The position numbers and the translations under genes are program-made. The notes under the pieces are model-generated. The model was not told where the DNA came from and ran no database searches. It saw only the letters and a list, made by a program, of their open reading frames with translations. Of a stretch of 64,000 nucleotides of DNA, positions 47,091 to 47,663 are shown in pieces (position 1 is the first letter of the stretch; every line of letters begins with the position of its first letter). The DNA lies in contig NC_042997.1 in the NCBI RefSeq assembly GCF_006345805.1, positions 83,762,001 to 83,826,000 on the forward strand, in the 5' to 3' direction. Source of the stretch: Octopus sinensis (Eukaryota).

Positions 47091-47234
47091 ACAATGAAAA
47101 AAAAAAAAAAATATATATATATATAAATTTAGGGTGAATACTTGATAAGTGTAAGCACCTGTATATGCCAGCTAGTAGCAGAGGTGAGAGGATATATGTA
47201 TCAAATGAAATAAAAAACAGAACACAAAGGATGT

Positions 47235-47327
47235 CGCGGTACACGTGTTTCAAGCTTTATAAACGACCTATTCTTACATCAGTGTATAATTGACATAAAG
47301 GATGGTTTAAAGCTCTCTTCAGCCGCA
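47235..47327 (-). ncRNA. Type I hammerhead ribozyme (left arm)
   Basis: TGCGG-CTGAAGA-GAGCTTTA..TAAAGCTT-GAAA-CACGTG-TA-CCGCG on the minus strand. Confidence 0.8.
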
Positions 47328-47504
47328 TGCAATTGTTATACCAAAGGTTTACATCACATTATGAAAAATCTGAAAGGTACAATTAGTGTTACCCATAATG
47401 ATAGGTATATCAGGAGACTTGATATACCTATCATTATGGGTAACACTATTTGTACCTTTCGGATTTTTCATAATGTGATGTAAACCTTTGGTATAACAAT
47501 TGCA

Positions 47505-47597
47505 TGCGGCTGAAGAGAGCTTTAAACCATCCTTTATGACAACTATAAACTGATGTAAGAATAGGTCATTTATAAAGCTTGAAACACGTGTACCGCG
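47505..47597 (+). ncRNA. Type I hammerhead ribozyme (right arm)
   Basis: Stem I TGCGG/CCGCG; CTGAAGA 47510-16; stem II GAGCTTTA/TAAAGCTT with a large loop; GAAA 47581-84; palindromic ACACGTGT; GUA cleavage triplet ending at 47592. Confidence 0.8.
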
Positions 47598-47631
47598 ACT
47601 ACCTTTGTGTTCTGTTTTTGATTTCATTTGT

Positions 47632-47663
<32 letters not shown>

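Follow-up and report, generated by a model that had tools for sequence, protein, structure and literature searches.

A palindrome carrying a hammerhead motif on each strand in Octopus sinensis, read as an inverted pair of Penelope-like element ends

What is a near-perfect palindrome that carries a hammerhead ribozyme motif on each strand, and how did it come to lie where it does? We studied one such locus in a window of 64,000 bp (the whole stretch of DNA analysed) from Octopus sinensis (NC_042997.1, positions 83,762,001 to 83,826,000), whose genome is microsatellite-rich and 2.72 Gb in size. The original prediction described a fold-back of two ~221-bp arms with about ten mismatches and a 7-nt loop, and this was confirmed: the arms were 221 nt each, differed by exactly 10 mismatches and enclosed the spacer GGAGACT, and the whole fold-back had a folding energy of -347 kcal/mol. 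The extent first given, 47192..47640, was right for the arms but too short for the full element: the left arm ran on for 67 nt past that boundary to 47125, as the 'tail' of a Penelope-like element (PLE; see below), and there reached (TA)n. The right arm ended at about 47640 without a tail, and (TA)n bordered both ends of the insertion. At the junction of the arms there was a TCA/TGA microhomology with one G missing, i.e., the terminal TCA of the antisense arm matched the element sequence just upstream of the spacer, minus one G. A crude ORF scan recognised no long host ORF or exon in the window.

Table 1. Positions of the features of the palindrome in the window
Feature	Position	Strand	Basis
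(TA)n target microsatellite, left insertion end	47111..47124	.	sequence
67-nt PLE 'tail' between end sites 1 and 2, left arm only	47125..47191	-	comparison with L076, L120
Left arm: 5'-truncated pLTR/3' end of Hydra-clade PLE	47192..47412	-	
Left-arm type I hammerhead motif; core start 47322; predicted cut between 47240 and 47239	47235..47327	-	
Spacer GGAGACT: element sequence directly upstream of right arm	47413..47419	+	
Right arm: 5'-truncated pLTR/3' end, tail-less (ends at end site 1)	47420..47640	+	
Right-arm type I hammerhead motif	47505..47597	+	
(TA/CA)n target microsatellite, right insertion end	47641..47735	.	sequence

A scan of the whole window found the type I hammerhead topology at two places only, at 47510 on the plus strand and at 47322 on the minus strand, in agreement with the core proposed for each strand; both had the CUGANGA, GAAA and UH core and the three helices of a type I hammerhead. 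On the plus strand the core comprised CTGAAGA (47510-47516), GAAA at 47581 and ACACGTGT, with the cut predicted after A47592. Stems I and II had the 5 and 8 bp first ascribed to them: helix I (47505-47509/47593-47597, TGCGG/CCGCG) had four G-C pairs plus one U-G, and helix II (47517-47524/47573-47580) had eight pairs, the first being G-U. Helix III lay at 47584-47591. The unusually large loop of ~48 nt said to close stem II had that length but is predicted to fold into an interrupted extension of helix II spanning 47517-47580 (z -2.3 in the left arm, only -1.4 in the right arm). An interrupted helix was predicted for all nine sequences folded, with z from -0.9 to -4.7 and seven of them at or below -2. 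An Rfam search at the gathering threshold had no match in the window, and 42 weak matches found there by E-value included no hammerhead family; the long helix II is the likely cause of this miss.

Covariation of the stems, which had been named as a check, was seen. Core positions were invariant in 14/14 family representatives, and helices I-III covaried, with 97% of 168 cells paired and 10 of 12 pairs changed on both sides (0/500 shuffles), in rows that are related sequences mostly chosen by a stem-requiring scan and thus biased towards pairing. The loop of helix III was palindromic in all 14 aligned rows (ACGT, ATAT, AATT or GATC); the non-palindromic loops GATT and AAAT occurred in some copies outside the alignment. 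Two copies of the window motif folded as a dimer at -43.3 kcal/mol, compared with 2 x -15.9 kcal/mol, and the two-strand fold gave an 8-bp intermolecular helix unprompted; helix III of the monomer had 2 bp. Together with the covariation, this fold upholds the dimeric reading of the palindromic helix III. The model predicts that the hammerhead would cut in tandem pLTR-ORF-pLTR transcripts, and only as a dimer via ACACGUGU. That a single arm cleaves itself is doubtful, because helix III of the monomer is so short and because a study of minimal metazoan PLE hammerheads reports no monomer cleavage (Cervera and de la Pena 2014, PMC4209133). Those hammerheads resemble the present ones in being type I, with a helix II of 7-8 bp, a helix I of 4-5 bp and a palindromic helix III, and include 'dual' motifs that lie on opposite strands at distances of 100-700 bp; the extended helix II sets the present ones apart, and the available text of that study does not analyse the ends of inverted pairs. 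Further hammerhead loci were also seen. L225 held an inverted pair of a more distant family (8563 minus, 8940 plus) with a long helix II and an ACGT loop III; L222 (4604 plus) and L067 (3759 plus) held short-loop type I hammerheads of other families; and in L309 (1477-1633) the junction of an inverted pair fell exactly on the helix III palindrome ACACGTGT.

Almost certainly, the palindrome consists of two 5'-truncated 3' ends (pLTRs) of a Hydra-clade PLE joined head to head. An inverted pLTR pair of a PLE had been among the first suggestions, which ORF-bearing relatives bear out and narrow to this clade. A search with the arm gave 49 matches, with 40 of 1134 candidates scored, and a 25-mer over helix III had 134 exact matches in the genome and none for the reversed control. 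Walking upstream from the arm we found non-coding 3' sequence over 1.3 kb or more. The parent element was seen as tail, ORF, long 3' UTR and arm in L076; pLTR-ORF-pLTR in L120, whose arm was 80% identical; and inverted arm, ORF and arm in L101/L062. In the ORF-bearing copies L076 and L120 the tail continued into the 5' side of the ORF. The ORFs of L076, L120 and L101/L062 were broken, and a sister subfamily (L102, L104 and L112) had an open frame of 842 aa with 87-88% identity in the RT core. These relatives, outside the window, thus have the architecture of EN+ PLEs, a single ORF with RT followed by a GIY-YIG-type endonuclease between pLTRs, and the further EN+ traits of 5' truncation, an adjacent inverted copy and an optional tail were all found.

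The marks reported for the Hydra clade are an RWK-like motif, DKT, a CxCX5C linker, CxxC and CxH (Craig et al. 2021, PMC8557442). The L102 ORF had RIRWA at 43 (it reads RWA, not RWK), DKT at 132, CNCRCASEC at 702, CQLC at 799 and CIH at 829; the sister-subfamily ORF also had YRDD, and a lone cysteine stood between the VIY and YIG motifs in place of a CCHH, as expected of the Hydra clade. This assignment was made from motifs, those of the RT being compared by eye with Hydra-1_Obim. The Pfam match was weak (RVT_1, E 0.019) and a second Pfam search gave none; a PDB sequence search and an exact-sequence look-up returned nothing for the intact ORF, and Atlas neighbours at 0.96-0.98 had HTH_animal in 25-99% of members and GIY-YIG in 31-50%. 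Published Hydra-clade PLEs (e.g., Penelope-13_HM and Hydra-1_Obim) share with ours the ORF with a C-terminal endonuclease, the RW, DKT, CxCX5C, CxxC and CxH motifs, the 3' hammerhead and the (TA)n targets (PMC8557442), the last being present here at both window flanks and at most 3' ends of the surveyed copies. In the available part of the supplement to that paper, the entry for Penelope-13_HM gives an inverted copy, truncated at its 5' end, and hammerheads on the two strands, and the hammerhead listed for Hydra-1_Obim differs in sequence from that of the window's family. There were differences in size. The helix II region spans 50-66 nt here (33 nt in one copy, L115), whereas the Hydra loops in the accessible table measure 3-10 nt and two non-Hydra spike-moss entries of that table are also long-looped; the tail is ~67-70 nt (~120 in a related family), against 30-40; and ~4.4-4.8 kb separate the hammerheads in the sister subfamily (L102, L112), against 'generally <3 kb', which is not a defining trait of the clade (PMC8557442).

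A Neptune-like RT/GIY-YIG ORF beside the arm in L061 was considered as the parent and rejected, 0/20 loci of this ORF family and its relatives carrying the arm; it is a co-insertion in (TA)n. The ORF itself (G000:C7:99455000-99464999, 8722-6457 minus) belongs to a young Neptune-like PLE family with RT, GIY-YIG and inverted flanks, whose copies are 94-96% alike with open frames of up to 776 aa; no canonical hammerhead was found downstream of the ORF in 10 copies scanned. Also seen were several young families of the Hydra clade that have open ORFs and contain long Asn-rich inserts (L102, L104 and L112 with the 842-aa ORF, L118, L119 and L211-L230), and Pfam missed their RT.

How the two ends were joined was approached through a survey of copies. 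For sample 1 the arm search supplied 30 loci, and the 25-mer list together with additional arm matches another 90; of these 120 loci, 107 remained once 13 had been removed because they repeated an insertion or had an identical junction. Sample 2 comprised 80, of which 23 had already been seen and were dropped, leaving 57 with no overlap with sample 1. Head-to-head arms separated by 60 nt or less were defined as pairs. By this definition 52 of the 107 loci in sample 1 were pairs (41/78 among the 25-mer-only loci, counting three very short arms found by eye), as were 23/57 in sample 2. Copies ended at two fixed sites ~70 nt apart, here called site 1 (no tail) and site 2 (tailed), the end classes being taken from BLAST boundaries. 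In sample 1 both ends lay at a site in 41 pairs and an end lay elsewhere in 11; one tailed and one tail-less end were found in 40 of the 41, and two short ends in the other. Sample 2 had 18 classifiable pairs, 16 of them with mixed ends. In the combined samples exactly one arm was tailed in 56/59 classifiable inverted pairs (p 6e-14 against 0.5), and the same rule was obeyed by 11/12 inverted insertions with an ORF, from this family and related ones, when inspected by eye. The exceptions were L138, L232, L248 and L101/L062; the two of sample 2 were L248, in which the tail was split off by an insertion, and L232, in which foreign flank was duplicated on both sides. Solo copies were 40 short, 14 tailed and 2 other. 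As regards copying from cleaved RNA, 7/79 arms in sample 2, which was partly enriched for such starts, began within the 7 nt around the cut. The inverted arrangement of PLEs is already published; our literature search, which ran without most subscription papers, found neither the one-tail rule nor a count of PLE tail asymmetry or a twin-priming model.

Paired arms were kin: the median arm-arm distance was 0.047, compared with 0.104 to other copies (28 pairs), and it fell in the lowest 10% for 18 pairs and outside for 10. The window's arms had in common three rare states, each present in 3-6% of other copies, and partners in the young sister subfamily differed at 0-2 of ~215 nt, while most loci differed by 4-30. 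Each pair had its own junction, with a median offset of 75 nt between the 5' ends of the arms (at most 20 nt in 7/40 pairs), so the head-to-head hairpins are insertion products and no propagating unit. Among the junctions of the 52 pairs, 25 overlapped by 1-12 nt, 3 were flush and 24 had extra bases.

We therefore read the palindrome as a single insertion into (TA)n of PLE ends twin-primed at two fixed start sites, with a probability of about 0.7; the twin-priming mechanism as such we consider reasonably likely. It builds on the family identity, the ORF-bearing relatives, the two end sites, the one-tail rule and the kinship of paired arms, all of which were observed. The RT-endonuclease of the element, perhaps as the dimer predicted for another PLE, would nick both target strands, and both nicked strands would prime reverse transcription, one at each start site ~70 nt apart on the element RNA. 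One cDNA would then begin at site 2, with the tail, and the other at site 1, without it, both presumably copied from one RNA or one source; both would stop early and join at their 3' ends, at this locus via TCA/TGA. The outer extension of ~70 bases on only one arm would thus likely record copying from two fixed start points, one per target strand. By analogy, this reading fits the behaviour of the purified protein of PAc (Poseidon, from Anolis), which, according to the available text, nicks and extends both strands in vitro and starts at two sites bounding the tail, a dimer being predicted (Frangieh et al. 2024, PMC11167929). Its AT-rich targets and its main template, uncleaved RNA, were also counted as likenesses; PAc belongs to a different clade, and its ORF starts inside the hammerhead, whereas here it starts ~250 nt downstream (L120). 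The available part of that study draws no link from the two start sites to the two ends of inverted insertions. Twin priming of L1 is alike in that priming from a second nick, at a site inside the RNA, gives an inverted junction, but from the accessible description the internal site is arbitrary there and the arms do not overlap (PMC2837659), whereas the present family has a fixed second site and arms that mostly overlap. Indeed both arms copied the same stretch in 32/40 pairs, which under twin priming needs strand displacement or two pLTR templates. Also against twin priming, 24/52 junctions carry extra bases rather than an overlap, and the kinship of arms could come from gene conversion instead.

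The alternative that survives best, though we find it unlikely, is a snap-back, in which a cDNA primed at site 2 would fold at its 3' end, copy itself and exit at site 1 by annealing to (TA)n, the spacer possibly flipping later. Self-priming has been put forward for palindromes with inverted junctions (PMC3846280), site 1 itself resembles an AT repeat, and kinship of the paired arms is what such copying would give. The 7-nt offset and short TCA/TGA microhomology of the present locus also fit a snap-back followed by a flip of the spacer, and in four pairs (L005, L026, L134 and L176) the short second arm ends at neither site and looks like an aborted snap-back. However, after a snap-back the tailed arm should in every case reach further at the 5' side, and this was so in 16/40 pairs, with the tail-less arm longer in 23/40 and the two equal in 1/40. 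The median offset of the arms and the window's spacer, which is in sense with the tail-less arm, also speak against it, and the arms that consist of the tail only, found in 8/40 pairs, share almost nothing with their partners and contradict it as a general rule. Since a snap-back can give neither a 5'-longer tail-less arm nor a tail-only arm, the latter together with the one-tail rule favour twin target-primed reverse transcription.

Dual priming, in which two separate RNA molecules would each be primed at one nick, as proposed for L1 in the available part of PMC2837659, would explain overlapping arms with no strand displacement, and in a few pairs (L008, L027 and L167) the arms are as distant as unrelated copies. 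It is nevertheless quite improbable: independent RNAs would not force mixed ends, which from the solo frequencies are expected in ~38% of pairs under independent choice, against the 56/59 seen, and young pairs match each other, not other subfamilies.

Highly improbable is a functional or self-propagating hairpin, either a non-autonomous element or a dsRNA/ribozyme switch used by the host, both of which had been entertained at first. Both cores are intact, and a 220-bp duplex would form in read-through RNA. The window's junction, however, was absent from every other sampled locus, and the fact that each pair has a junction of its own speaks against a dedicated non-autonomous element; the proposed switch between dsRNA and cleavage found no support. 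Nor do two intact cores at one locus require selection, because core positions vary much as a typical position does. CUGANGA was kept in 99/113 copies of the window's family, the core varied by 2.2% against a median of 3.0% at neighbouring positions, and thus single copies showed no sign of selection on the core, which was not clearly better kept than a typical position. We propose that the hammerhead is a passenger of the pLTR. Non-LTR retrozymes are alike in having a type I hammerhead and in being pLTR-derived and non-coding, but in the available text they are defined by tandem units (bioRxiv 10.64898/2026.07.22.740005), whereas the window copy is a single head-to-head inverted pair. To an assembly fold-back artefact we give virtually no weight, as had been argued from the mismatches: although, among the contigs listed for four of 24 sequencing runs, none spans the spacer with 31 nt on either side of it (repeats of this kind interrupt short-read contigs), the arms differ at 10 positions, only one has a tail, and 51 other loci have the same architecture with different junctions.

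The 5' ends of copies clustered ~175-200 nt upstream of the core, where 23/36 arms reaching this 30-nt bin stop, compared with a stop rate of 9-25% in each of the eight bins closer to the 3' end. This bin begins with TCACT, a sequence described for another pLTR as resembling an initiator (PMC3846280), and we infer that transcription starts here. Both window arms begin ~100 nt downstream of the hot spot, so the window copy probably lacks its own promoter. Read-through from either flank would yield RNA in which the antisense arm comes first, as had been noted and as follows from the geometry, and the resulting duplex would be expected to bury the hammerhead; with the promoter missing and the arms pairing in this way, the hammerheads are probably inert at this locus. 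At the 5' junctions of L005, L018 and L180 there were short inverted segments at the same hot spot around an AACAT/ATGTT mini-hairpin, which suggests a fold-back when the RT reaches the end of the RNA.

Upstream of the cut, by 16-26 nt, AATAAA or ATTAAA was present in 11/14 representatives, TATAAA in 2 and none in 1, the 14 being related sequences; the hexamer of the window's family is TATAAA, and a U/GU-rich stretch lies after the cut site. A role of the hexamer in polyadenylation is speculation. More tentatively still than twin priming itself, the priming might be programmed, with a dimeric RT-endonuclease, one RNA and two fixed sites, one per target strand, so that tail and inverted copy would be obligatory products of one reaction, and with the extended helix II and its AATAAA/ATTAAA letting ribozyme folding gate pLTR polyadenylation.

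PLEs are the sister group of telomerase RTs. How they build up tandem and inverted insertions has been named as an open task (PMC8557442), and the one-tail rule together with the tail-only arms makes a specific prediction for an existing in vitro system. The locus itself is a real but ordinary Hydra-clade PLE product, probably inert and one among hundreds; the added value lies at the family level, in a long-helix-II variant of the hammerhead and in an end rule with few exceptions, through which PLE integration can be put to the test. Since Rfam does not pick up these hammerheads, which are also unlike the published Hydra set, genomes of this kind probably hold more ribozymes than have been counted. 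Roughly half of the copies sampled already form palindromes, whose transcription would produce dsRNA.

Other features of the window were recorded. One sequencing run, guessed to be RNA and possibly DNA, had exact pieces at 46857-47080 and 47190-47255 at a depth of 3-4. Directly right of the insertion, 47736-47950 is a very abundant SINE-like repeat (families D16-D19) with about ten further copies in the window. Remnants resembling PLE GIY-YIG endonuclease ends lie at 29429-29773 (minus) and 30544-30717 (plus), the latter matching the Hydra-type ORF with E 5e-5. The frames 10295-10762 (plus) and 39516-40558 (minus) resemble what we take to be Tc1/mariner transposase fragments, and 18076-19400 is a long stretch of AT-rich microsatellite that includes an imperfect inverted repeat of 300 nt around 18470-18490.
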